This document shows positions 18,390 through 63,107 of a stretch of 64,000 nt of DNA, piece by piece. The stretch covers positions 104,808-168,807 of the IMG/VR virus record IMGVR_UViG_3300050821_010761; one strand, given 5' to 3'. This DNA is from a virus (Duplodnaviria > Heunggongvirae > Uroviricota > Caudoviricetes). The position numbers and the translations under genes are program-made. The notes beneath the pieces are model-generated. The model did not search any database, was not told the origin of the DNA, and saw nothing but the letters and a program-made list of their open reading frames with translations. How positions within the stretch are numbered: position 1 is the first letter of the stretch; every line of letters starts with the position of its first letter.

Positions 18390-18770
18390 TTATTTCACTT
18401 CCCTAAGAATAGTCTTCATTTTGAACTTCTTAAAACAATCGGTACACTGATGAATGGTACATTTGTCGGTAGCATATACCAACTCTTTATGTTTGCAATT
18501 TTTTGGCAATTTAGATTTAAATACGGACCACCATTCGTTATCGGATAATAATTTATTAGTTCTTGGGTGATACACTCTAAATGTTGATTCCATAGTATAG
18601 TAGCTAGAGCCTCCATTACCACTTCTGGAAACATAATGATAATATTGTTCTACCACATATCGCTTTCCTGGCACTAGACCTGTAGAATTGTTAGTGAAAC
18701 AATTAGCGTGTTCGCCTAACTTATTGGTGCAGGAAGTTATGTAGCCTGTGAAATACATTAATTTGTTCAT
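18390..18770 (-). CDS. Cys-rich hypothetical protein (126 aa)
   Basis: Convergent with the + pair. Multiple Cys residues (CTIHQCTDC). Confidence 0.4.
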   Translation of the reverse strand: MNKLMYFTGYITSCTNKLGEHANCFTNNSTGLVPGKRYVVEQYYHYVSRSGNGGSSYYTMESTFRVYHPRTNKLLSDNEWWSVFKSKLPKNCKHKELVYATDKCTIHQCTDCFKKFKMKTILREVK

Positions 18771-19004
18771 CTCAACTTCTCAATCTTAGCCAGCGTTTTC
18801 TTTAGATCCAAAGAAACCATCTCTTTAAAGACTTCTGGTCGATGTTTGAATTTTTCAGGCACTGCGCTACTGAGCCTTTGTTTAAGATGCTCAGCATATT
18901 TCATGAGTCTCGGAATTTGATCATTTGGTTTAGCCATTGTAGACCTACTTATCTTTCAATTCATGTTTGTAAAAATTTTATCACTTCTTTGTCATTATTT
19001 CAAC

Positions 19005-19457
19005 TTATAATCCAACTCGGTGGTATAGTACTATTGAGCCAGCAACCGCTACGTTCATCGAATAATCCCCTTTTAGTTTGATAACATATTGGCAAGATTT
19101 CAAGACTTCTTGTGGAATACCGCTATCTTCTGCGCCTACCAAATAAACAGCTCGACTAGGGTGAACAAACCCTTTTAAATCCCTAGCTTTACTGTCCAGT
19201 TCCAAACCAACAAGTTGACATCCCTCTGGCAAGTGTTCATGAAAGTCATCGAAATCTTTATATTCAAAAACTGGTAGATGTAGATGTGCTTTCGTAGTAT
19301 CGGTATGCTGTTCTTTGAATCTTTTTCCAATAGTAGCAATGAAATCGGCGCCCAAAATATTTGCGGTCCTAATCAATGATCCCCAATTATCTCTATTCTT
19401 TGGGTGGTACATTGCCAATCCAAAATAACCTCGATGGTCAGACATTTTCTTCTCCAA
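19005..19457 (-). CDS. SPOUT-class RNA 2'-O-methyltransferase, TrmL/TrmH-like
   Basis: All three SpoU motifs are present: NWGSLIRTANILGADF, LVGAEDSGIP and SMNVAVAGSIVLY. Size (150 aa) matches TrmL. Confidence 0.7.
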   Translation of the reverse strand: MEKKMSDHRGYFGLAMYHPKNRDNWGSLIRTANILGADFIATIGKRFKEQHTDTTKAHLHLPVFEYKDFDDFHEHLPEGCQLVGLELDSKARDLKGFVHPSRAVYLVGAEDSGIPQEVLKSCQYVIKLKGDYSMNVAVAGSIVLYHRVGL

Positions 19458-20226
19458 TCAACGGTATTCTAGATCTAAGGTATTCTTTATCTTGTGTGAA
19501 TATTGGTGGCTCAAAGGACGCCCATTTAAAACGCTCTACTTGTGCCTGGACTTCTCCATCTGGACGTTTAACGTCCACTTTTTCGATTTTCTCTTTGAGG
19601 ATAATACGACCACGCTTGAAACCCACTGGGTACTTATCCCAATTGACACCCTTTTGGAACATAAGTTCCTGAAGCTGTGATGTGTTTTTGCCATGCAGTT
19701 CTTTGTGACTATAGAGAGATTGGGCACCCATGTGTATACTGTTGCGCGTAGCATCCTGTTGACGCCAGATGAGCATGTTAATAACTTCTTCTCGATCAGG
19801 AATACTAAACACTCTGGAGTCGAAATATGCCACCTTATCCATACTGGCAAGGATTTCTTTATCCAGGTACATTCCATTGTTGAATGCTACCGTCGCCATA
19901 GATGCTGAAATAGAAGTTATTTTTTGAATGTTACCGTCAAACCACGCATCCGTGTGAATAGTCTCGAAATCCGTAAGAATTAGAGATATCTCATCCGATT
20001 GAACATAAGCAAGCTTAACTCCTTGAACGTCTTCGCACAGAGCTATAGCTGTCTTATCCATGATTCTCATCAAGTTGAGATCATATGGTCTAGAAAATGA
20101 TTTAGTATAAGTGTGGAATGATTTTCCGTCCAAACGAATGATAGTGTAAGTTCTACGAGGAATGAAGAACCTGGTACGATCTTCGTAATTGTTTTTCATT
20201 CTTGAGCCGAGTTCATCTTTTTTCAT
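19438..20226 (-). CDS. Thg1-like protein (tRNA-His guanylyltransferase family, tRNA 3'-5' polymerase)
   Basis: Matches hallmark Thg1 motifs: IIRLDGKSFH, YVQSDEISLIL and WRQQDATRNS. Start chosen at the internal ATG (MKKDEL) with RBS AGGGA. The longer ORF extends to 20337. Confidence 0.7.
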   Translation of the reverse strand: MKKDELGSRMKNNYEDRTRFFIPRRTYTIIRLDGKSFHTYTKSFSRPYDLNLMRIMDKTAIALCEDVQGVKLAYVQSDEISLILTDFETIHTDAWFDGNIQKITSISASMATVAFNNGMYLDKEILASMDKVAYFDSRVFSIPDREEVINMLIWRQQDATRNSIHMGAQSLYSHKELHGKNTSQLQELMFQKGVNWDKYPVGFKRGRIILKEKIEKVDVKRPDGEVQAQVERFKWASFEPPIFTQDKEYLRSRIPLIGEENV

Positions 20227-20425
20227 GTGAATCCCTAATTTTTTCATTAAAATCCGATGTCGGCAATTCACCTTCACCACATTTTGGACATTGAAAATTA
20301 TCCCAGCATCCCGTCCACGTAACCTTACAGTCATCACATAGCATTCCTCTAGAAAAAGCTGGGTCTACTGCTGAAAAATTACCAAGATATTCATATCCAA
20401 ATTCGTCTTTCATTAATCTCTCCAT
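20213..20425 (-). CDS. small zinc-ribbon protein
   Basis: 70 aa with CDDCKV...CPKCGEG cysteine pairs. Confidence 0.35.
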   Translation of the reverse strand: MERLMKDEFGYEYLGNFSAVDPAFSRGMLCDDCKVTWTGCWDNFQCPKCGEGELPTSDFNEKIRDSHEKR

Positions 20426-33923: not shown

Positions 33924-34844
33924 TCAATGCACTACCGTGCCAACGTCCCTAACAAAACCCGACGTGTCTCGCTTAGCAATGCCCTTGGCCTTGAGACCGA
34001 CGATCAATCCAACGGTCTCGCGAGCATCCAAAAAGCGAAAATCATGCTTGTCACCGTCAATCACCTTAAAACCCTGATAAGTCTCGGGCAATGCCGACGT
34101 CCTAAACACGGTCGCAACGTTGACGCCTAAATTCAGTGCCTTAAGGCAATCGTCCCAATTTGATTCACTGGCACTAAATGTGACATGATAGTTCGGTATC
34201 GAAACAATACGCTCTAAACGCTTGAATACTTTGGTATAATCGTAGAACGTCACGTTTGGATACAGTTCAAAAATGTTCTTGCCTGTATCACCGACCTTGA
34301 ATAACTCCCATGCCAAGTCCGAAGTCCCATTGAGTCTCACAATGACACGGTTGCTGGTCTTGGCACAGATTTTGCCTATTTCGCGACTCAAACGCGTCAA
34401 AAACGTCTGTCTAAATTTGAGAAAATATAGCGTTTTGCGAAGTCTTGGCATCTGGACACCGTCGAATAGCCCGCGTCCCGCACCGTTGAGGCATGCCGCG
34501 CGACACCCCGCCGATGCGTTAGGGCATATATTTACACCGCTAAGGTCGGATGGACTAAGGTGCAAAATCCAATTCGAGACGTCGCCTAACCCCGCGTCCT
34601 TAGCCGTTTTTGGATTGATCATGCCGTTAGACAGGATTGACACCTTAGTTAGACGCTGTTCCAAAGCAAGACGATCGTTTTGACTCAACTCTTCGAAATT
34701 GATCAGGTCCCAAAGGTCTGTCTCAAGTGGAGACAACTCCTGTTTGGCACGAATTTTGCTTTGCAATTGGTCTTTAACTTGTCTCAATAAGAAACCCTTA
34801 CCCGCATCTGTCCCAGTATGGAGCGATTGAATGATTTGTTTCAT
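33924..34844 (-). CDS. Cys-motif protein, possibly phage Gp37/Gp68 (DUF5131)-like
   Basis: Start at MKQ with RBS AAGGAATCAAA-ATG. Cys-x6-Cys-x3-Cys cluster (NICPNASAGCRAAC). 307 aa. Confidence 0.4.
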   Translation of the reverse strand: MKQIIQSLHTGTDAGKGFLLRQVKDQLQSKIRAKQELSPLETDLWDLINFEELSQNDRLALEQRLTKVSILSNGMINPKTAKDAGLGDVSNWILHLSPSDLSGVNICPNASAGCRAACLNGAGRGLFDGVQMPRLRKTLYFLKFRQTFLTRLSREIGKICAKTSNRVIVRLNGTSDLAWELFKVGDTGKNIFELYPNVTFYDYTKVFKRLERIVSIPNYHVTFSASESNWDDCLKALNLGVNVATVFRTSALPETYQGFKVIDGDKHDFRFLDARETVGLIVGLKAKGIAKRDTSGFVRDVGTVVH

Positions 34845-35038
34845 TTTGATTCCTTTAGTTCTGCATTCCATCTCATTATAAGACTGTCTATTTTCCTTAT
34901 CAATCTGGGACACTGGTCTACGTTGTCTCGAAACAATGCATTTCGTAGACGCTCCAAGTCTCGCTTCGAGAACTCCACTTGGTCTTGAAACGAGCCGTCT
35001 ACATTCAAGACGGCATCGAGTACTATTTTTGGTCTCAT
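34841..35038 (-). CDS. hypothetical protein (65 aa)
   Basis: GGGGTTATCAAA-ATGAGAC start context. ATGA overlap with the downstream gene. Confidence 0.35.
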   Translation of the reverse strand: MRPKIVLDAVLNVDGSFQDQVEFSKRDLERLRNALFRDNVDQCPRLIRKIDSLIMRWNAELKESK

Positions 35039-35062
35039 TTTGATAACCCCTTTTATCTCGTT

Positions 35063-35377
35063 TTAATTCAAACCCTGTTCGAAATCCCATAATGATACTT
35101 CGTGTGTATCACCCTCAGTCTGCTGGCATGACTCACAATGATCCAAGCAATCGTCTCCAAATGAGACAACTTGAATTTCATCCAAGCAATGCGAACAAAC
35201 TCTAACCGTCTCAATTTGAGGCTGACTCACACTGAGACTAAGTTTGCCCCAAACCAAATGCCTATAAAACCCTTGATGAGACCTATAGGTTGGTCGGTGT
35301 ATCTTAAAGTGAGTCCAGTCCCACCGTGCTGTCAAGCCAATCTCAATATAATACGCGAAAAACCAAAAGCGTTTCAT
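35063..35377 (-). CDS. Cys-rich hypothetical protein (104 aa)
   Basis: RBS GAGGAG. CSHCLDE...CLDHCESC. Confidence 0.4.
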   Translation of the reverse strand: MKRFWFFAYYIEIGLTARWDWTHFKIHRPTYRSHQGFYRHLVWGKLSLSVSQPQIETVRVCSHCLDEIQVVSFGDDCLDHCESCQQTEGDTHEVSLWDFEQGLN

Positions 35378-36836: not shown

Positions 36837-37640
36837 TTATGCAGTGAGTAGCTTAGTCGCCTCGTCCCAGATTGACGCATTAAGGTCAATCGACTTGACC
36901 GACTGTTCACTGATACGTCGAGCGGTACCGTTGCGGACCGTTGCAATGCCGTTTTGATCGGTGGTGGTGGTTTGATAGCGGATGCCAAAACGAATTGCAT
37001 TCTCTTGTATCACGTTGAGAACACTAAATAAATCCGATGCCTTATCGTCGGCACGTCTAACCCTAAGCAGGTCTTGTGCCTCAATTTTGGTCACATTCTC
37101 AGTTTGAGCCAAACGAATTTGAGCTACGTTTGTCGCTAATTGAGACAGTTCAATAGCACTAACTTGACGTGCCATCATGGAACGTACCATATTGGACAAC
37201 GCTTGACGTTGCGCGACTAGTTGAGGGATGAGTGTGTTCAATTCTGATACAGGATCACCTAAATGTTTCACTTTGACTGTCTCAAAATCCCTTACACCGA
37301 CAACTAGACCGTTCTTGCAAACCAAGCGATATAAGCCTAACATGCCAACTAGGGAGCCGTAGAGATGAGGGACCTTAAAGACGATACGGAAGTCTAGACC
37401 GTCAATGCCTAGACCGTTGTCGCGTGCCTGATAGACTGCAACGGTGTTTTGAAAATCGGCGCGGTCTGGATTGCGTGCCTTGCCCGTTTTGAGACCGATA
37501 AGGTCAAAACCGTGTCCATCCAAGACTTGAGCAATTTGAGATGGTTGGATCACTTTGAAACGTTCCGACTTATCGGCGTGCCGTTGGTCTTGAATGAAAC
37601 TAGTTGAGATGCTCGGTGCCGTGTTTTGATTATAACGCAT
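36837..37640 (-). CDS. DUF932/TIGR03299-like phage-plasmid protein
   Basis: Start MRYNQNTAPS with RBS AAAGGGGAATAT. Size and N-terminal pattern resemble the DUF932 family seen on plasmids, ICEs and phages. Confidence 0.45.
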   Translation of the reverse strand: MRYNQNTAPSISTSFIQDQRHADKSERFKVIQPSQIAQVLDGHGFDLIGLKTGKARNPDRADFQNTVAVYQARDNGLGIDGLDFRIVFKVPHLYGSLVGMLGLYRLVCKNGLVVGVRDFETVKVKHLGDPVSELNTLIPQLVAQRQALSNMVRSMMARQVSAIELSQLATNVAQIRLAQTENVTKIEAQDLLRVRRADDKASDLFSVLNVIQENAIRFGIRYQTTTTDQNGIATVRNGTARRISEQSVKSIDLNASIWDEATKLLTA

Positions 37641-51672: not shown

Positions 51673-51914
51673 ATAATGCCGATGATTTAAATTCAAAAAC
51701 TACCGATGAACTGGTTCAAATATTTATCGATAGCGTTCAAAACGCCTATGATCGCATATGGGTTGAATCTGCCACCGAAGAACAGCTGGACAAACTGGGG
51801 AAAACTAGTGGACTGGTCCGTCAGTGTGATCACGAATGGGTGACATGGACTGGTCTTCATGGTACCATCACAGACTGCACTAAATGCAAACAGGTCAAAG
51901 CGGATGGTATATGA
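51669..51914 (+). CDS. hypothetical Cys-containing protein (81 aa)
   Basis: ATGA overlap both sides. Confidence 0.35.
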   Translation: MNNADDLNSKTTDELVQIFIDSVQNAYDRIWVESATEEQLDKLGKTSGLVRQCDHEWVTWTGLHGTITDCTKCKQVKADGI

Positions 51915-52435
51915 AAGTCCTATTTCTCGATTTCGATGGAGTTCTGAATTCTCAACAATCAGAGATTTTCTGGCACAATAAACGTGACCAATCGCTGTGG
52001 GAAAATGAGATGTACAAGTCTTGGCACGGTACTCTTAAAGAATATATTGCACATGAATTTTGTCCCATTGCTATGTCCAATGTGGAAGAGTTGATTCGGA
52101 GAGTTCCAGATCTCAAAATCGTGATTTCTTCTTCTTGGCGCCATGGAGAAACTATCGAAACATTGAAGAAAATTCTTCACCCTTCCAAACTCATTGCCGA
52201 TGCCATAATTGACGTCACTCCGTATTTTCGCGGAGATAAGCCGCGTGGTGCTGAAATTCAAGATTGGCTTGATAGGCACACAGAAGTGTCGCACTATGTG
52301 ATATTAGATGATGATCGCGATATGTTAGAAAGTCAGAAAGATAATTTTATTAACACGTCCCCTTTCCATGGATTCCAATACGGAGACATGCTTTGGGCCT
52401 TAAGAATACTTGGCCACGCGGATAGGCAATATTAG
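51911..52435 (+). CDS. small HAD-superfamily phosphatase, paralog A (HAD_SAK-like)
   Basis: HAD motif I LFLDFDGVLN, motif II VISSSWR, motif III R-G-EI, motif IV VILDDD. Paralogous to 55912-56454 and 62682-63107. Confidence 0.6.
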   Translation: MKVLFLDFDGVLNSQQSEIFWHNKRDQSLWENEMYKSWHGTLKEYIAHEFCPIAMSNVEELIRRVPDLKIVISSSWRHGETIETLKKILHPSKLIADAIIDVTPYFRGDKPRGAEIQDWLDRHTEVSHYVILDDDRDMLESQKDNFINTSPFHGFQYGDMLWALRILGHADRQY

Positions 52436-53347: not shown

Positions 53348-53977
53348 ATCATCTACTTCACATCAGACACACATTTTTGGCACAAGAATGTTATCAGACT
53401 GTGTAGCCGTCCATTTGCACATCTGCACGAGATGCATGAGTACATGATCGATGAATGGAATAAGCGCGTCAGAAAGCCTACGGATAAAATTTATGTTTTG
53501 GGAGACTTCTCGTTTGCCAATGGCACAATGACAAGGCCCATACTTGAACGTCTAAACGGCTATAAAATATTGATTGCTGGCAATCATGATAGGCATGCCA
53601 AGCATATGTTGGATATGGGTTTTCAAGAAGTACACGAGAACATTTGGATTGAGATTGGTAATAAACAGAAAGTTTTCTTGAGCCATTTTCCTTTCCATCC
53701 GATGAATGCTTATGGCAAATATCCAGATGGCCGTATTGAAATTGGTTATCCATATGAGAAGATAGACACGCGCTACATGCATAAGCGTATTGTAGACGAT
53801 GGTACGCAGTGGTTGATCCACGGACATGTCCACGGTGCATGGAAACAGAATGGTCGTCAAATTAATGTTGGTGTGGATGTTTGGGATTTTAAGCCAGTTT
53901 CACATGAAAAGATTCTACAGATTATTAAAGCTGGACCAAAATTTGAGGGAAAATCCACAGACGATTACGGAGATTAA
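53348..53977 (+). CDS. calcineurin-like metallophosphoesterase (start codon unresolved)
   Basis: Motifs GDFS, GNHD and HGHVHG are present. Motif I (IIYFTSDTHF) lies in-frame upstream of the first ATG (53432), in a stretch with no ATG/GTG/TTG after a TAG at 53339. Confidence 0.55.
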   Translation: MIYFTSDTHFWHKNVIRLCSRPFAHLHEMHEYMIDEWNKRVRKPTDKIYVLGDFSFANGTMTRPILERLNGYKILIAGNHDRHAKHMLDMGFQEVHENIWIEIGNKQKVFLSHFPFHPMNAYGKYPDGRIEIGYPYEKIDTRYMHKRIVDDGTQWLIHGHVHGAWKQNGRQINVGVDVWDFKPVSHEKILQIIKAGPKFEGKSTDDYGD

Positions 53978-54276: not shown

Positions 54277-55905
54277 GTGAAATCCGCCTTTGATGTATTT
54301 TCAAGTAAATTTGCTCAAGATATTTATTTGCAGAAGTATTCAAAAGATGGAGTTGAAAACTGGGCTGATACAGCGCGAAGAGTCGTAGAAGCTGTATGCT
54401 CTCAACTTCTAGATAGTAAAACAAAAGAAAAAATTTATAACGCAATTGTAGATAGAAAATTTATTCCTGGCGGTCGATACCTCTACTCTGCTGGCAGAGA
54501 ATTTCACCAGACAAATAACTGTTTTCTCTTCCGTGCGGAGGATTCCAGGGAAGCTTGGGCAGAAAATATGCACAAGATCACCGCTTCTTTAATGACGGGC
54601 GGCGGTATTGGAGTTGACTACAGTAGGTTAAGACATGAAGGCGCCGTAATTAAGCGCACTGGTGGCACATCGACTGGTCCTATAGCTTTGATGAATATGA
54701 CTAATGAAGCAGGGCGTTATATTATGCAAGGTGGCCAACGGAGATCGGCAATCTGGGCTGGACTTCTTTGGTCTCATCCCGACATATTCAAATTCATGAA
54801 TCAAAAGAATTATTCAGAAGATATGAAAGCGATGAAGCTTAAAGATTTTAATTTTCCTCTGCCGATGGAATTGACAAACATCTCCATAATTTACGATACA
54901 GAATTCTTTATCGCCATAGACAATCTAGAGCACGCAAAACATGAATTAGCTAATCGTGTATGGTTGGAAAACTGCAAACAAGCATTTGCTACGGCTGAAC
55001 CTGGAATGAGTTTCAATTTCCGAAAAGATAATGAGTCACTGCGCAATGCCTGCACTGAAGTTGTCAGTGAAGACGATTCAGATAAATGTAATCTTGGTAC
55101 GATTTGGATCAATCGCATCAAGACAAAGAACGAGATGGCTGAAATGACGAAACTTTCAACGCTTTTTCTTCTTTGTGGTGGTATTTATAGTCACACTCCC
55201 ACTGATAGGATCAAAGAAGTAGGAAACAAGAATAACAGGATCGGTCTTGGTCTTGGCGGCATTCATGAATGGCTAATGACGCGCAACCATGACTATGAGG
55301 TCGTACCAGAATTGCACAAATGGTTGTCTGTTTACGAGCAAGAATCGGATTCCGCAGCCTTCATTGGTGCTAAGCAGTTGGGAGTTTCGGTGCCTAAGGG
55401 CGTAAGGGCGATTGCTCCTACTGGAACTATAGGAATTATTGCAGAAACTACCACGGGAATCGAACCTTTGTTTTGTAAATCATACAAAAGACGTTATAGG
55501 AATTCCGAGGGCGAGTGGGTATTTCAATATGTGGTGGACGGTACCGTAAAACGACTGCTCGATCAGGGCGTGAAACTAGATGCGGTGAAAGATTCTTATG
55601 ATCTGAACTTTAAACAGCGCGTTAAATTCCAAGCGGATGTGCAAAACTACGTGGATATGGCCATTTCCAGTACTTGCAATATGCCACAATGGGGATCGGA
55701 TGCAAATAATGAGCAAAATTACGAGAAAAATGCCAAAGTCTTACTTAAATATGCAAAAAGACTGCGCGGATTTACTGTCTATCCCAATGGATCGCGCGGG
55801 GGACAACCTCTGACGAGCGTTCCTTTAGAAGAAGCTCTCAAAGATGAAGGAAAAGTATTCGAGGAGACGGAGAATACTTGCTTGAATGGAGTTTGCGGGC
55901 TATAA
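54277..55905 (+). CDS. nrdJ: ribonucleotide reductase, probably class II (adenosylcobalamin-dependent, monomeric)
   Basis: RBS AGGAG plus GTG. RNR signature segments SLMTGGGIGVDYSRLR, RNACTEV, CNLGTI and APTGT. C-terminal Cys pair CLNGVC. No beta-subunit gene nearby. Confidence 0.7.
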   Translation: MKSAFDVFSSKFAQDIYLQKYSKDGVENWADTARRVVEAVCSQLLDSKTKEKIYNAIVDRKFIPGGRYLYSAGREFHQTNNCFLFRAEDSREAWAENMHKITASLMTGGGIGVDYSRLRHEGAVIKRTGGTSTGPIALMNMTNEAGRYIMQGGQRRSAIWAGLLWSHPDIFKFMNQKNYSEDMKAMKLKDFNFPLPMELTNISIIYDTEFFIAIDNLEHAKHELANRVWLENCKQAFATAEPGMSFNFRKDNESLRNACTEVVSEDDSDKCNLGTIWINRIKTKNEMAEMTKLSTLFLLCGGIYSHTPTDRIKEVGNKNNRIGLGLGGIHEWLMTRNHDYEVVPELHKWLSVYEQESDSAAFIGAKQLGVSVPKGVRAIAPTGTIGIIAETTTGIEPLFCKSYKRRYRNSEGEWVFQYVVDGTVKRLLDQGVKLDAVKDSYDLNFKQRVKFQADVQNYVDMAISSTCNMPQWGSDANNEQNYEKNAKVLLKYAKRLRGFTVYPNGSRGGQPLTSVPLEEALKDEGKVFEETENTCLNGVCGL

Positions 55906-55911
55906 TGAATT

Positions 55912-56454
55912 ATGAAAGTAATTTTTTTAGACTTTGATGGCGTTTTAAATTCAGCTACCTCCTTTCTTTACGAAGTGAATCGCCGTAATAAACACAAAGA
56001 ACAGGGCGTAAAGGGTCCAGTCAACGAAACTCTATCTTTACATTGCTGCGCAGCATTCCAATTTGTATTAGATCAGTATCCAGACGTTAAAGTAGTGCTT
56101 TCCACTACCTGGCGCACTATGTTCACCATAGATTGGTTAAAAGCCAAGCTTGAAGAGTATCACATTGATTCATCTCGCGTTATCGATAAGACACCACAGA
56201 CTTTTGGCGGTAATAGAGGTCGCGAGATCGAAATTTGGCTACGTGATCATCCAGAAATCACGCATTTCGTGGCCATTGATGACAATGACGATGGCATATC
56301 TGCCTATTTCGGCAAGGATCGTTTCGTCCAGACGGATTGGGAACGTGGCATGGGCGTACAACATGCTGCCGAACTATGCGAAAAACTTTCTGCCAAAAAT
56401 CTTAAAAAAGTTAAAGAAAGACTGAAAAAAGAAGCCAAGGAAGATGAGGAATAG
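55912..56454 (+). CDS. small HAD-superfamily phosphatase, paralog B (HAD_SAK-like)
   Basis: VIFLDFDGVLNS, VVLSTTWR, RG-EIEIWL and VAIDDNDD motifs. Confidence 0.6.
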   Translation: MKVIFLDFDGVLNSATSFLYEVNRRNKHKEQGVKGPVNETLSLHCCAAFQFVLDQYPDVKVVLSTTWRTMFTIDWLKAKLEEYHIDSSRVIDKTPQTFGGNRGREIEIWLRDHPEITHFVAIDDNDDGISAYFGKDRFVQTDWERGMGVQHAAELCEKLSAKNLKKVKERLKKEAKEDEE

Positions 56455-57338
56455 TGGACTTAATCGACCGCCTATCTAGCAAGGGTCTCATTAAACCTCC
56501 GCCCCATGTTTTAGGTGGCACGCATTATTTGACCATAATGGGTTCCCAAGCTTATGCTGTAAATACTGATGACTCCGATCTAGACATTTATGGGTGGTGT
56601 ATTCCTGCCAAGGACATGATTTTTCCGCACCTGCGCGGCGAGATACTTGGTTTTGGTTACCAAACTCAGAGATTCGAACAATTTCAACAGCATCATGTCC
56701 AAGAAAAAGATCACAATAAAGAATACGATCTTAATATCTACAATATTGTCAAATACTTCCAGTTGGTAATGGATAATAATCCGAATATGATTGATTCTCT
56801 GTTCACTGATGAAACTTGCGTAATCAAATCCACAAAACTGTCCAATCACGTTCGCGATAATAGAAAAACTTTCCTTTGCAAAAAAGCCTGGCACACTTTT
56901 AAGGGTTATGCCTACGCTCAGATGAAGAAAATGCGTACCAAGGAGCATAACAAAGAAGGTGTAAGATACCACATGATCGAGAAGTACGGGTATGATGTAA
57001 AATTTGCTTATCATGTAGTTCGTCTACTGAATGAAGTAGAAATGATTCTAACTGAGCACGATCTGGATTTACGTCGCAACAACGATCAGCTGAAAGAGAT
57101 CCGTGCTGGTCAATGGACTATGGATCAGATCGAACAATATTTCCTCATTAAGGAACGATCTTTAGAGGAAACGTACGCCAAATCTACTCTTCGCAATCGA
57201 CCAGATGAGCCAGCTATCAAGAAAATCCTTCTTGAGGTTTTAGAGGAACATTTTGGGACGTTGCAGGGTATGGTTGAGACTGCCGATTATTACAAAGATA
57301 TGCTGAGACAAATCCAGCAGATTGTGAGCAAAGTATGA
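56454..57338 (+). CDS. Pol-beta-superfamily minimal nucleotidyltransferase
   Basis: GS...DSDLD motif (GSQAYAVNTDDSDLDIYGW) typical of the NTase fold. Embedded in the RNA-repair gene neighbourhood. Confidence 0.5.
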   Translation: MDLIDRLSSKGLIKPPPHVLGGTHYLTIMGSQAYAVNTDDSDLDIYGWCIPAKDMIFPHLRGEILGFGYQTQRFEQFQQHHVQEKDHNKEYDLNIYNIVKYFQLVMDNNPNMIDSLFTDETCVIKSTKLSNHVRDNRKTFLCKKAWHTFKGYAYAQMKKMRTKEHNKEGVRYHMIEKYGYDVKFAYHVVRLLNEVEMILTEHDLDLRRNNDQLKEIRAGQWTMDQIEQYFLIKERSLEETYAKSTLRNRPDEPAIKKILLEVLEEHFGTLQGMVETADYYKDMLRQIQQIVSKV

Positions 57339-57453: not shown

Positions 57454-57834
57454 ATGAAGTTCATCGTGGCAGGCAGCAGGACCATTCAGGAAATTACGGC
57501 TTATGGTCAGCTGGTAGAATTGCGTATTGCTAAAACGCATCCATTTTGTAATGCAACAGAGATCGTTTCTGGTACCGCCAAAGGACCAGACAAAGCTGGC
57601 GAGATCTATGGTGATTTCTATGGTATCTCCGTTACTAAATTTCCTGCAGAATGGGATAAGTATGGCAAACGTGCTGGTCCGATAAGAAACAATAAGATGG
57701 CAGTCTATGCCGATGCCCTACTTTTGATTTGGGACGGTCAGTCAAAAGGATCTAGACATATGAAACAAGCCATGCTAACATTGAATAAACCAGTGTTCGA
57801 GCTTATTTTGGAGCCATACAATGAAACGAAGTGA
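57454..57834 (+). CDS. SLOG-superfamily (DprA/LOG-like, DUF2493-type) protein
   Basis: N-terminal VAGSRTI Gly-Ser-Arg motif, SGTAKGPDKAGE and WDGQSKGSRH pattern. Confidence 0.4.
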   Translation: MKFIVAGSRTIQEITAYGQLVELRIAKTHPFCNATEIVSGTAKGPDKAGEIYGDFYGISVTKFPAEWDKYGKRAGPIRNNKMAVYADALLLIWDGQSKGSRHMKQAMLTLNKPVFELILEPYNETK

Positions 57835-58024
57835 AATGTTAAAAATCATTGAAGGTTTATTCAATTTGGCACCTAGGTTTGACAATGAAACTAACGCAGA
57901 GAATCTTTTGTCTACCTTGGAAGAAATAGGAATGCGTCCTCCATATAATGCCAGTGAAGATGATGGAGTAGATAGTTTTGAGTGGGAATCGGAAGAAGAA
58001 TTTCCTAGAAGTGGAGCGGTGTAA
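57821..58024 (+). CDS. acidic hypothetical protein (67 aa)
   Basis: Overlapping starts/stops with neighbours. Confidence 0.3.
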   Translation: MKRSEMLKIIEGLFNLAPRFDNETNAENLLSTLEEIGMRPPYNASEDDGVDSFEWESEEEFPRSGAV

Positions 58025-58941
58025 TGCCAACCCTATTCCTTTTGGTCGGTCCTCCAGGATCTGGTAAATCCACTTTTGCTAAGAACCAGATCGAAAATGG
58101 CGGCGATTTAGGTGCTGAATGCACATACGTAAATCAAGATTCTCAAGGCAAGCTTCAGCACATGGAGAATTTTCGAGAAGCGCTTCGTAATGAAAAAGAT
58201 GTATTTGTTGATCGCATGAATTTCAATCGCGCACAACGCCTTGGATACATCGAGCAAGCAAGAAAGGCTGGTTACGATGTCAAGATCCACGTTTTCCATG
58301 TTCCCTACTCGGAATGCTTGAAGCGTGCGTCTGAGAGAATTGGACACGAAACCATCCAGGATGCCGCCACAGCAGAAAAGGCAATACGATTTTTCTTCAA
58401 GTCTTATGAGAGAGTAGAAGACTGGGAAGCCGATGAAGTGATTCGCCATTATATGGAGGGCGATAAACCTAGTGCAATCTGGGTAGACCTAGATGGTACT
58501 CTATGTAATTGCGATCATAGAAGACATCATGTGCGCACCGAGAATAAGAAGAAGGATTGGTTAGCATTTTTTGGGGGCATCAAGGACGATACGGTAAACG
58601 AACCCGTGGCCAGTGTTCTAAGATCTATGAGTTGTGAGCGTGCCATAGTTTACTGTTCTGGACGGGGAGAAGAATACAGAAGCGCAACAGAACAATGGCT
58701 CAATAAACATCATCTGGATCGTTTTTATGATCCGTTGTTTGAAAGCTATACGTATGCTCATCTTTATATGAGACTTGCTGGAGATTCCAGGCAAGATTTT
58801 ATTGTAAAAGAAATTCTTTTGGACTTTGAGATACTTCCTAGATTTGCAATAGATTTTTGTCTTGATGATAGAGATCAGGTTGTGAAGATGCTTAGGGGCA
58901 GAGGATTGACAGTCTTTCAGGTAGCATATGGAGATTTTTAA
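58024..58941 (+). CDS. pseT: polynucleotide 5'-kinase/3'-phosphatase (T4 PseT-like)
   Basis: P-loop LVGPPGSGKST kinase domain plus HAD phosphatase IWVDLDGTL. C-terminal FQVAYGDF matches T4 Pnk VASGDF. Confidence 0.85.
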   Translation: MPTLFLLVGPPGSGKSTFAKNQIENGGDLGAECTYVNQDSQGKLQHMENFREALRNEKDVFVDRMNFNRAQRLGYIEQARKAGYDVKIHVFHVPYSECLKRASERIGHETIQDAATAEKAIRFFFKSYERVEDWEADEVIRHYMEGDKPSAIWVDLDGTLCNCDHRRHHVRTENKKKDWLAFFGGIKDDTVNEPVASVLRSMSCERAIVYCSGRGEEYRSATEQWLNKHHLDRFYDPLFESYTYAHLYMRLAGDSRQDFIVKEILLDFEILPRFAIDFCLDDRDQVVKMLRGRGLTVFQVAYGDF

Positions 58942-59135: not shown

Positions 59136-59434
59136 TGCTTAAGATCAGAGAAGCCAAAAAAGAACTAGCAGAGAAATCGTACAGGGATATTCAAGAATCT
59201 ACAGCATGGACCTGGGCATCTCGGGGCGTGGCAAGTTATCAAAATGTCATGATCGTAAGCAAAGACAAGAAAATGGCTTATTATTTATTGGCTGAGGAAT
59301 ATTCTCATGAGGCTCGCGAACACGCTGCTCTGGTAGAAGCTGGTGCATCCAGTCTTTTGAGCCAGGTACAAGCTGCTATAGTGCCACATGCTCTAAAAGC
59401 ATGGAATCACATCGAAGATGAGTTTGGCATATGA
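59135..59434 (+). CDS. hypothetical protein (99 aa)
   Basis: ATGA overlap with the RNA ligase gene. Confidence 0.3.
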   Translation: MLKIREAKKELAEKSYRDIQESTAWTWASRGVASYQNVMIVSKDKKMAYYLLAEEYSHEAREHAALVEAGASSLLSQVQAAIVPHALKAWNHIEDEFGI

Positions 59435-60507
59435 AATACGAGATCGAAGCCTTTGAAGTTTTGGTGAAAGATGGTTATTTGAAAAGGGCTGAAAAGGGCG
59501 ACCTAGTTCTTTACGGCTATACTGATAAGACAACTTTCGAGCGAGCTTGGCAAACCAAGTACACACGCGATGCCCGTGGCATCATATTGAACAAAAATAC
59601 TGGCGAAGTCGTCGCTAAGACATTCAAAAAATTCTTCAATCTTAACGAGATGGAAGAAACACAATTGAAAAATTTACCAAATGAGCAATACGAAGTTTTT
59701 GAGAAATACGACGGCTCCATGGGTACAGCCTTCTTCCATGACAATGACTGGCACATGGCCACTCGTGGAAGTTTTACATCAGAACAAGCACTCCGTGGCC
59801 TTGCAATATTAAATAAAAACTATAATATTTCGAGACTTGATCCTAATTGCACCTATCTTGTAGAGATTATCTACCCAGAGAATAAAATAATCGTAGATTA
59901 TGGCGATAAAGAAATGCTTGTGCTGCTTGGCGTTTTCCACGTTCCCACGGGCGACGAATTGTCTTTTCAGACAGTTAGGTGCATAGCGCAAGTTACGGGA
60001 ATGCCATGTGCAGTGCAATATTTTCACACAATAGAACAGATGATCGAATTACAGAAAACGATGCCAAAAGACGAAGAGGGCTTCGTCGTTCGCTTTGAAT
60101 CTGGTTTGAGGGTAAAAATCAAAGGCGAAGAATATATGAAAATCGCCAAGATGATTTCTCAGATGTCTCCGATTTCCTTTTGGGAGTCCATGGAGAATGG
60201 TAAGGTTAAGAAAGATTATTTGCAACAGCTTCCAGAAGAGTTTAGAAAAGAATACGAGCCAATGGTAGAGAGACTCGAAAGTCTCTACGAGAAAACGTTG
60301 TTTGAAATTGCTACAGAACAGACTAAATTGCCTATTACGGAACTGAAAGATAGGAACGATCGTAAGAATCTTGGCTTGTACTTATCTAGTGGCAAGCACG
60401 ATCTTAAGCATGCTTCCGTTATGTTTGCTGTGGTCTTAAAGCAATGGGAAACGGTCAACTCATATATTATGAAGTTGATTAGGCCCACTGGAAACGTTTT
60501 GTCATGA
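59431..60507 (+). CDS. rnlA: ATP-dependent RNA ligase, T4 Rnl1-type
   Basis: Nucleotidyltransferase motif I KYDGSMG. The N-terminal RGIILNKNTGEVVAKTFKKFFNLNE block closely matches T4 Rnl1 (RGIMFE...KFFNLNE). Confidence 0.8.
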   Translation: MKYEIEAFEVLVKDGYLKRAEKGDLVLYGYTDKTTFERAWQTKYTRDARGIILNKNTGEVVAKTFKKFFNLNEMEETQLKNLPNEQYEVFEKYDGSMGTAFFHDNDWHMATRGSFTSEQALRGLAILNKNYNISRLDPNCTYLVEIIYPENKIIVDYGDKEMLVLLGVFHVPTGDELSFQTVRCIAQVTGMPCAVQYFHTIEQMIELQKTMPKDEEGFVVRFESGLRVKIKGEEYMKIAKMISQMSPISFWESMENGKVKKDYLQQLPEEFRKEYEPMVERLESLYEKTLFEIATEQTKLPITELKDRNDRKNLGLYLSSGKHDLKHASVMFAVVLKQWETVNSYIMKLIRPTGNVLS

Positions 60508-62681: not shown

Positions 62682-63107
62682 ATGAAGATCCTTTTCCTCG
62701 ATTTTGACGGCGTAATTAAGCCTTTATACAAAGACTTTTCGAAAGAGGCATGCAAACTAGTCAACGATCTTTTGATTAAAGAGCCAGGGCTACGCATAGT
62801 CGTATCATCAAGTTGGCGTGTGTATGGTCTTCAAGAGGTTCGTGGCATTTTGAGAGAACTGGGAATAGATCCTATCAAAGTAATTGACGTCACTCCTGGC
62901 TTTCCAGAGCACGGTTTAAAAACTCGCGATCACCATATTAAGGTGTGGCTTAGGAATCACCCAGTAGACAATTTCGTGATTTTGGACGATGAGGCAGAAA
63001 TGCCTGATTTCAAGAAAAAGTATGTCAATACTGATTCTAATATTGGCTTGACTGAAAAAGATGCCGAACGAGCGCTCAGCATCCTAGAAAAGTCCAGTAA
63101 ATACTAG
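62682..63107 (+). CDS. small HAD-superfamily phosphatase, paralog C (HAD_SAK-like)
   Basis: ILFLDFDGVI, VVSSSWR, TR-HHIKVWL and VILDDE motifs. Confidence 0.6.
   Translation: MKILFLDFDGVIKPLYKDFSKEACKLVNDLLIKEPGLRIVVSSSWRVYGLQEVRGILRELGIDPIKVIDVTPGFPEHGLKTRDHHIKVWLRNHPVDNFVILDDEAEMPDFKKKYVNTDSNIGLTEKDAERALSILEKSSKY

Follow-up and report, generated by a model that had tools for sequence, protein, structure and literature searches.

Overlapping genes for a Thg1-like protein and a SPOUT methyltransferase

The stretch of DNA analysed here, called the window throughout, comprises 64,000 nucleotides of a Caudoviricetes virus (IMG/VR record IMGVR_UViG_3300050821_010761, positions 104,808 to 168,807) and carries on its minus strand two overlapping genes, one for a Thg1-like protein (TLP), predicted to be a 3′-5′ nucleotidyl transferase, and one for a SpoU-class RNA methyltransferase that consists of a SPOUT domain only (hereafter SPOUT; Table 1). 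Both proteins look active, judging from the intact catalytic motifs in their sequences. The combination of the two genes is a rare, loosely recurring neighbourhood and not a fixed two-gene system.

An initial annotation, made from the letters of the window without database searches, had named the first gene Thg1-like, and the searches bore this out. The 262-aa open reading frame (ORF) matched the Pfam family Thg1 (PF04446) with E = 5e-30 and 104.5 bits against a curated cutoff of 29.2, and PHROG 4717, ‘tRNA-His guanylyltransferase’, with E = 2e-83. The best solved relative was the TLP of Bacillus thuringiensis (BtTLP, PDB 4kgk; E = 3e-53), whereas eukaryotic Thg1 enzymes gave weaker matches of about 1e-13 to 1e-16, so that the window protein groups with the bacterial TLPs. 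The C-terminal Thg1C family (PF14413) was matched weakly, with 19 bits against a cutoff of 26.3; the BtTLP alignment, which begins at residue 4, still reaches residue 252 of 262. The HMMER alignment places D33, D78 and E79 of the window protein at D30, D75 and E76, the catalytic carboxylates of BtTLP (PMC3701042), equivalent to D29, D76 and E77 of hTHG1. These three residues are invariant across five phage homologues, and the window protein shares the SDE and RxDG motifs with BtTLP. Moreover, the phage homologues begin at the same residue, and identity to known phage TLPs is about 44-46%. From its sequence, the window TLP is predicted to have a complete two-metal active site, and, as with the characterised bacterial TLPs (PMC3061083, PMC3701042), it most likely lengthens 5′-truncated tRNAs in the 3′-5′ direction by copying the acceptor stem's 3′ strand.

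The longest ORF for SPOUT extends from 19005 to 19457, and the 20-nt overlap with the Thg1 gene that was given initially needs the first possible start in that ORF, a TTG at 19457. The ATG at 19445 is the likely start because the homologues have the N-terminus M-x-x-RGYFG, an identical protein in the database is called at 146 aa, and a GGAG ribosome-binding site precedes this codon. The probable overlap is therefore 8 nt, so that the genes do overlap, though likely by less than had been stated. A search for terminator-like sites between the two genes returned none, and both genes belong to a run of closely packed, mostly overlapping minus-strand ORFs (18.3-27.4 kb). Co-oriented and overlapping, with no terminator between them, the two genes are probably co-transcribed and translationally coupled in the window phage, in agreement with the single operon proposed earlier.

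Directly after the SPOUT stop codon, a promoter-like site on the minus strand (19003-18975; TTGAAA, 17 nt, TAAAAT, with an extended –10 TG and 10 of 12 matches) precedes a 56-aa ORF (18767-18937); it is a consensus match only, the number of such sites being no higher than in shuffled sequence.

Class and affinities of the SPOUT methyltransferase

The identification of the second gene as a SPOUT methyltransferase was likewise upheld, by a Pfam match to SpoU_methylase (PF00588; E = 1e-22, 81 bits against a cutoff of 29.7, residues 14-145) and by an AlphaFold2 model (predicted local distance difference test, pLDDT, 87; predicted template-modelling score, pTM, 0.84) that is a bare SPOUT domain with nothing appended. 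In a family alignment of 35 members, N20, G22, R26, E106 and N131 were invariant and S129 was kept in at least 90%. These residues supply motif 1 (N20/R26), motif 2 (E106) and motif 3 (S129/N131), all of which align to the TrmH motifs, and the family has a segment of its own after strand 2, Q46-x-x-D49-T50...H56-x-P58.

Foldseek comparison of the model with the PDB gave template-modelling (TM) scores of 0.72-0.80 to TARBP1, several rRNA methyltransferases, Thermus TrmL, TrmH and RlmB, and scores so nearly equal across tRNA and rRNA enzymes confirm the class, not the target. When the family profile was searched against PDB sequences, enzymes that form 2′-O-methylguanosine at position 18 (Gm18) of tRNA came top (TARBP1 1e-14, E. 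coli TrmH 6e-12, Aquifex TrmH 3e-10), whereas the TrmL entries followed at 2e-6 to 2e-5, six to nine orders worse than TARBP1 and TrmH. None of the NCBIfam models reached its cutoff with SPOUT, and equally none did so with the bacterial and phage homologues. The window protein scored 40.3 bits on RlmB (TIGR00186, cutoff 160.15), the match being limited to the C-terminal catalytic half (model positions 94-235), 29.6 bits on TrmH (NF008295, cutoff 227) and 21.7 bits on TrmL (TIGR00185, cutoff 190.6), on which its homologues scored 26-32 bits. Neither the N- and C-terminal tRNA-binding extensions of TrmH nor the N-terminal L30e-like domain of RlmB is present in SPOUT.

An assignment to RlmB thus finds neither the model score nor the L30e-like domain, and TrmH, although far below its equivalog cutoff, is still the closest characterised group by profile. 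TrmL was rejected on its score and on the closer affinity to TARBP1 and TrmH. The earlier label ‘TrmL-like’ therefore describes the SPOUT-domain-only architecture well and the sequence poorly. Since the sequence affinity is not to TrmL, the wobble position 34, which had been proposed as the target, cannot be inferred, and the argument for immunisation of the anticodon therefore loses its basis. On its sequence, SPOUT is best placed in an uncharacterised SpoU-class family. The characterised enzymes with a SPOUT domain only are TrmL and RlmH, and the TrmH of Thermus loses its activity when the C-terminal extension, needed for tRNA binding, is missing (PMC9508554).

An rRNA target would be an alternative reading of these affinities. 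SPOUT would then methylate, for example, a ribose in the A- or P-loop of 23S rRNA (as RlmB, RlmP or TsnR-type enzymes), tuning or protecting host ribosomes, and the adjacency to Thg1 would be incidental. RlmB is indeed the best NCBIfam match of the window protein and of its bacterial and phage homologues (E 2e-10 to 2e-16), but all these matches are far under the cutoff (40-60 bits against 160); and 5l0z, AviRb, YsgA, RlmB and RlmR stand among the top fold matches, but the rRNA enzymes have 250-290 aa with an N-terminal L30e-like RNA-binding domain, for which SPOUT, with 146 aa, has no counterpart. With the tRNA Gm18 enzymes at the top of the profile search and SPOUT recurring beside tRNA-directed enzymes in several phages, an rRNA target is considered unlikely.

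Distribution of the two families

For the SPOUT family, 164 homologues with a length of about 145 aa were found in the database, and matches occur in at least 555 bacterial genomes. The best 80 of these genomes are mostly Bacteroidota (Flavobacterium, Brumimicrobium, Maribacter, Bacteroidales), and the bacterial orthologues adjoin housekeeping genes (asparaginyl-tRNA synthetase, RpoN, GyrB), with no repair gene or conserved partner found near them. Flavobacterium, for example, has the gene beside those for asparaginyl-tRNA synthetase and RpoN, or beside GyrB (bacterial loci L167-L246, e.g. L229, 7962-8435). This common chromosomal RNA methyltransferase of the Bacteroidota has no curated NCBIfam model covering it.

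Among viruses, an alignment-based scan found the family on at least 193 IMG/VR contigs and supplied the viral SPOUT loci compared below; a query with the single protein gave no loci. Isolated phages carry it in three records only, the best being Mycobacterium phage WXIN (45% identity), in which a Pnkp gene lies 1.1 kb downstream of SPOUT. PHROGs v4 has no family for SPOUT, and the BFVD viral structure library holds two SPOUT folds only, both from giant eukaryotic viruses. At the nucleotide level the region matched no isolated phage, and literature searches yielded no report of a SPOUT or TrmH-like tRNA methyltransferase from a phage.

Phage Thg1 genes have been described as sporadic in jumbo phages and as linked to kinase, ligase and Macro genes (PMC7824862, PMC2904730). 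Thg1 homologues occur in 164 isolated-phage records, and none of the three SPOUT isolates was among the 40 of these 164 that were listed; no Thg1 was found in the parts covered of Myxococcus phage Mx1 (42-92 kb) and of WXIN (58.7-115 kb). The isolates with Thg1 include 13 Caulobacter and 7 Brevundimonas phage records, hosts of the alphaproteobacterial group whose tRNA-His lacks G-1. These phages could be a useful system for asking what role a phage Thg1 has.

Recurrence of the pairing in viral loci

Co-occurrence was counted in the best 80 loci per query, with pairing searched within 10 kb by tblastn, which may overlook divergent Thg1, SpoU and repair genes, so that the counts are lower bounds. 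Thg1 lay within this distance of SPOUT in 2 of 80 viral SPOUT loci, leaving 78 without it, and SPOUT within the same distance of Thg1 in 3 of 80 viral Thg1 loci, one of which has a different SpoU protein (24% identical). The same 80 Thg1 loci gave 17 tblastn hits to RNA ligases (14 Rnl2-type and 3 Rnl1-type, not deduplicated by locus) and 10 to Pnkp. No conserved partner of viral SPOUT emerged, and no cluster of neighbours was shared by more than 7 of 84 loci. In a Pfam census that took in 447 ORFs of 140 aa or more, up to 4 kb from SPOUT at 77 viral loci, the prevailing matches were DNA methylases, helicases, HNH endonucleases and terminase or portal proteins. The RNA-repair families in it were Thg1, RtcB, Rnl1, Rnl2, AAA_33, HAD_PNKP and HAD_SAK_2, and they fall in about 8 loci by our tally, as the census gives family counts and not locus lists.

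The individual loci illustrate how loosely the two genes are associated. Both are kept, with two small unannotated ORFs between them, in L002 and L007, syntenic relatives of the window with 18-21 common ORFs in the same order, and L090, a more distant syntenic relative, has Thg1 and lacks SPOUT. In L003, whose ribonucleotide reductase is 76% identical to that of the window, both genes stand in one cluster with the order AAA - Thg1 - Rnl2 - ... - Metallophos - kinase - ... - SPOUT. An otherwise unrelated phage (L105 and L077, one contig) has Thg1 - RtcB - SPOUT at L105 9995-12339, with RtcB and SPOUT overlapping by 4 nt; its RtcB occupies two ORFs in different frames (hidden Markov model positions 11-85 and 216-425) with the central part of its domain missing, and could be split, degenerate or broken by a sequencing frameshift. 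In L115 (4776-14919), Thg1 stands within an array of 13 tRNAs and a transfer-messenger RNA (tmRNA), with a different SpoU (199 aa) 3.6 kb downstream and a hemerythrin-domain ORF also just downstream.

The pair is rare among phages, as had been supposed, and the expectation that its two members would be conserved together largely failed: Thg1 and SPOUT are not co-conserved, because so few loci in either direction have both and because L090 lacks SPOUT. The pairing recurs in three or four lineages only, which by a rough judgement is still above expectation for independently placed rare genes, and in a minority of phages SPOUT again shows a looser tie to RNA-repair modules.

RNA-repair genes and genomic context

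The window forms one end of a 168,757-bp contig from a myovirus whose genome has about 169 kb and which is a distant relative of Myxococcus phage Mx1. Mx1 is the closest isolated relative by tail sheath (42% identity) and has at least 25 tRNA genes, a TROVE protein, a SLOG protein and a peptidyl-tRNA hydrolase. The distant Pnkp and Rnl1 genes mentioned in the initial annotation are present in the plus-strand half of the window together with RlaP (Table 1), and genes for peptide deformylase, ThyX and dUTPase lie further downstream. The phage would thus be unusually well supplied with enzymes for the upkeep of RNA and tRNA. Pnkp is 38.5 kb from the Thg1-SPOUT pair, on the opposite strand. No Rfam RNA was found in the window.

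Table 1. Features of the window discussed in the text, in order of position
Feature	Position	Strand	Basis
SPOUT-domain-only SpoU-class RNA methyltransferase, 146 aa	19005-19445	minus	Pfam PF00588, family alignment, AlphaFold2 model
Overlap ATGTCTGA, 8 nt	19438-19445	minus	SPOUT start codon 19445-19443 and Thg1 stop codon 19440-19438, read from the sequence
Thg1-like protein (TLP), predicted 3′-5′ nucleotidyl transferase, 262 aa	19438-20226	minus	ATG at 20226; Pfam, PHROG and PDB matches
GGAG ribosome-binding site of SPOUT	19455-19452	minus	6 nt upstream of ATG 19445
ORF, 70 aa, zinc-ribbon-like motif CxxC...CxxC	20213-20425	minus	ORF list; weak zinc-finger Pfam matches only
ORF, 153 aa	20413-20874	minus	Co-oriented upstream in the same packed run; no family match (Pfam, PHROG)
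GHKL/HATPase_c protein, 707 aa	27431-29554	minus	
GP88-family protein	33924-35090	minus	
DUF932 protein	36837-37640	minus	
SPFH/Band-7 protein, 605 aa	49180-50997	plus	
HAD_SAK_2 paralogue 1	51884-52435	plus	Pfam PF18143 3e-29
Metallophosphatase	53432-53977	plus	Weak match
Ribonucleotide reductase (RNR), intact	54277-55905	plus	
HAD_SAK_2 paralogue 2	55912-56454	plus	Pfam PF18143 2e-27
RlaP, RNA ligase-associated Pol-beta nucleotidyltransferase	56454-57338	plus	Pfam PF10127 5e-17; 294-aa gene call
YspA/YAcAr-type SLOG protein	57454-57834	plus	Pfam PF10686 2e-4, under the Pfam cutoff
Pnkp, P-loop kinase and HAD phosphatase	58024-58941	plus	Pfam HAD_PNKP 6e-33, AAA_33 5e-15
Rnl1-family (T4 RnlA-type) RNA ligase	59431-60507	plus	Pfam RNA_lig_T4_1 4e-23
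HAD_SAK_2 paralogue 3	62682-63107	plus	Pfam PF18143 1e-24

Upstream of the Thg1 gene, the 3′ end of the 70-aa ORF overlaps the Thg1 start by 14 nt, and a homologue of this ORF (75%) lies 3 kb from Thg1 in L090. In the plus-strand half, three stand-alone HAD_SAK_2 proteins (‘HAD domain in Swiss Army Knife RNA repair proteins’) are interspersed with RNR, RlaP, Pnkp and Rnl1, and HAD_SAK_2 homologues occur 2.5-6 kb from Thg1 in L140 and L141. On the same contig, about 1-2.9 kb to the left of the window, a 622-aa protein has a minimal CRISPR polymerase (mCpol, PF18182) domain (L250, 5878-7746); the mCpol palm domain is related to those of Thg1, GGDEF and Cas10, and the gene is surrounded by unannotated ones and lies just upstream of the tail-sheath and tail-tube genes of the window. 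Other accessory genes annotated in the window encode the GHKL/HATPase_c, GP88-family, DUF932 and SPFH/Band-7 proteins (Table 1).

Possible roles of the two enzymes

The initial annotation had joined these genes into a scheme of coordinated repair and hardening, in which SPOUT, as a TrmL-type enzyme forming a 2′-O-methylated nucleotide 34 (Nm34), would immunise anticodon loops in the part of Hen1, the TLP would repair 5′ ends, and Pnkp and Rnl1 would reseal loops. The SPOUT-only architecture is as in TrmL (PMC9508554), but the sequence affinity to TARBP1 and TrmH and the low score on the TrmL equivalog point elsewhere, and the fold comparison cannot tell targets apart. The overlap of the two genes and the full Pnkp, Rnl1 and RlaP set in the same genome would suit such a scheme, yet Hen1, a Rossmann-fold enzyme, forms a complex with Pnkp and modifies broken 3′ ends, whereas here the fold is SPOUT and the distance and opposite strand of Pnkp speak against a Hen1-type coupling. 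Similarly, SPOUT stands in or beside RNA-repair clusters in L003, L105 (Thg1-RtcB-SPOUT), WXIN (Pnkp at 1.1 kb), L064, L066 and L070, but repair genes are missing within 4 kb of SPOUT at about 90% of its viral loci, the housekeeping orthologues in bacteria have no repair genes beside them, and the relative L090 retains Thg1 without SPOUT. The scheme as a whole is thus regarded as very improbable.

A broader form of protection would be that the SPOUT-only family serves phage counter-defence, 2′-O-methylating the nucleotide 5′ of the cut made by a host tRNA nuclease, in intact or religated tRNAs, alongside TLP, RtcB, Rnl and Pnkp enzymes. This appears quite improbable; if true, SPOUT would match Hen1 in function with a SPOUT fold and would be the first tRNA ‘hardening’ methyltransferase encoded by a phage.

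Maturation of phage-encoded tRNAs would give both enzymes a common substrate: the TLP would add or restore 5′ nucleotides (G-1 of tRNA-His, or mis-processed ends), and SPOUT would supply a structural 2′-O-methyl faster than the host enzyme. Such a role would fit L115, where Thg1 lies inside the tRNA and tmRNA array with a SpoU gene just downstream, the tRNA genes within 4-7 kb in L105, L007 and L003, and the at least 25 tRNA genes of the distant relative Mx1. However, no tRNA gene was found in the 64-kb window, in about 10 kb to its left or in the less than 0.5 kb to its right before the contig ends (about 95 kb of the contig lies outside the scanned part), and 51 of the 60 viral SPOUT loci scanned have no tRNA gene nearby. 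There is accordingly only a small chance that maturation is the shared task.

The interpretation that is favoured here, and that we hold to be fairly probable, is that the TLP and SPOUT are two independent accessory enzymes of tRNA maintenance, probably co-transcribed and translationally coupled in this phage. The phage would have acquired SPOUT from a family whose members in many Bacteroidota are chromosomal housekeeping genes. As a member of the SpoU class, it most likely uses S-adenosylmethionine (SAM) to place a ribose 2′-O-methyl on a structured RNA, probably a tRNA; its closest characterised relatives make Gm18. Such a methyl group would stabilise the RNA or shield one phosphodiester bond from nucleases that use the 2′-OH. 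In fact, 2′-O-methylation takes away the nucleophile of metal-independent ribonucleases, and a protective role of SPOUT is therefore plausible. The TLP and SPOUT would then have a common theme without being an obligate pair, as they stand apart or alone in the relatives of the window phage and in most other phages.

Several observations weigh against this interpretation. A TrmH-like core without extensions may recognise something other than tRNA, and RlmB, an rRNA enzyme, is the best NCBIfam match of SPOUT, though far under its cutoff. tRNA as the substrate of the family is inferred, no tRNA gene lies in the scanned part of the contig, and the co-occurrence counts, as lower bounds, may understate the association of the two genes.

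Phage Thg1 proteins are already catalogued, whereas the phage SPOUT family is barely so, with three isolate records against at least 193 metagenomic viral contigs. If SPOUT methylates tRNA, it would represent a widespread and unstudied route by which phages edit the host or phage tRNA pool, and its occasional place in RNA-repair clusters leads to the testable hypothesis that 2′-O-methylation protects from tRNA-cleaving defences. A function found for the phage protein would also cover the uncharacterised housekeeping methyltransferase of the Bacteroidota.

Comparison with known systems

The closest counterpart of the window TLP is BtTLP (4kgk; PMC3701042, PMC3061083), which it resembles in its full-length alignment, length class, carboxylates, SDE and RxDG motifs and stand-alone organisation; it differs in being phage-encoded and in lying far from a polynucleotide kinase, the usual neighbour of bacterial TLPs (PMC2904730). 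The phage Thg1 homologues (PHROG 4717, the Bacillus phage Bcp1 group and those of jumbo phages; PMC7824862) belong to the same family and are often found in RNA-repair or tRNA regions. For SPOUT, the TrmH/Trm3/TARBP1 group contains the best sequence relatives, with motifs 1-3 including the catalytic arginine in common, whereas the Q-x-S-D-T motif after strand 2 is specific to the SPOUT family. TrmL (YibK) is likewise a domain-only protein of about 150 aa with TM-scores of about 0.72-0.77, but its sequence match is weak and carries no sign of position 34. Finally, the likeness to Pnkp-Hen1 is one of concept, that of a methyltransferase that could shield a repaired junction from re-cleavage; unlike SPOUT, Hen1 has the Rossmann fold, methylates the ribose at the 3′ terminus of broken RNA, and shares an operon with Pnkp, to which it is fused or bound.

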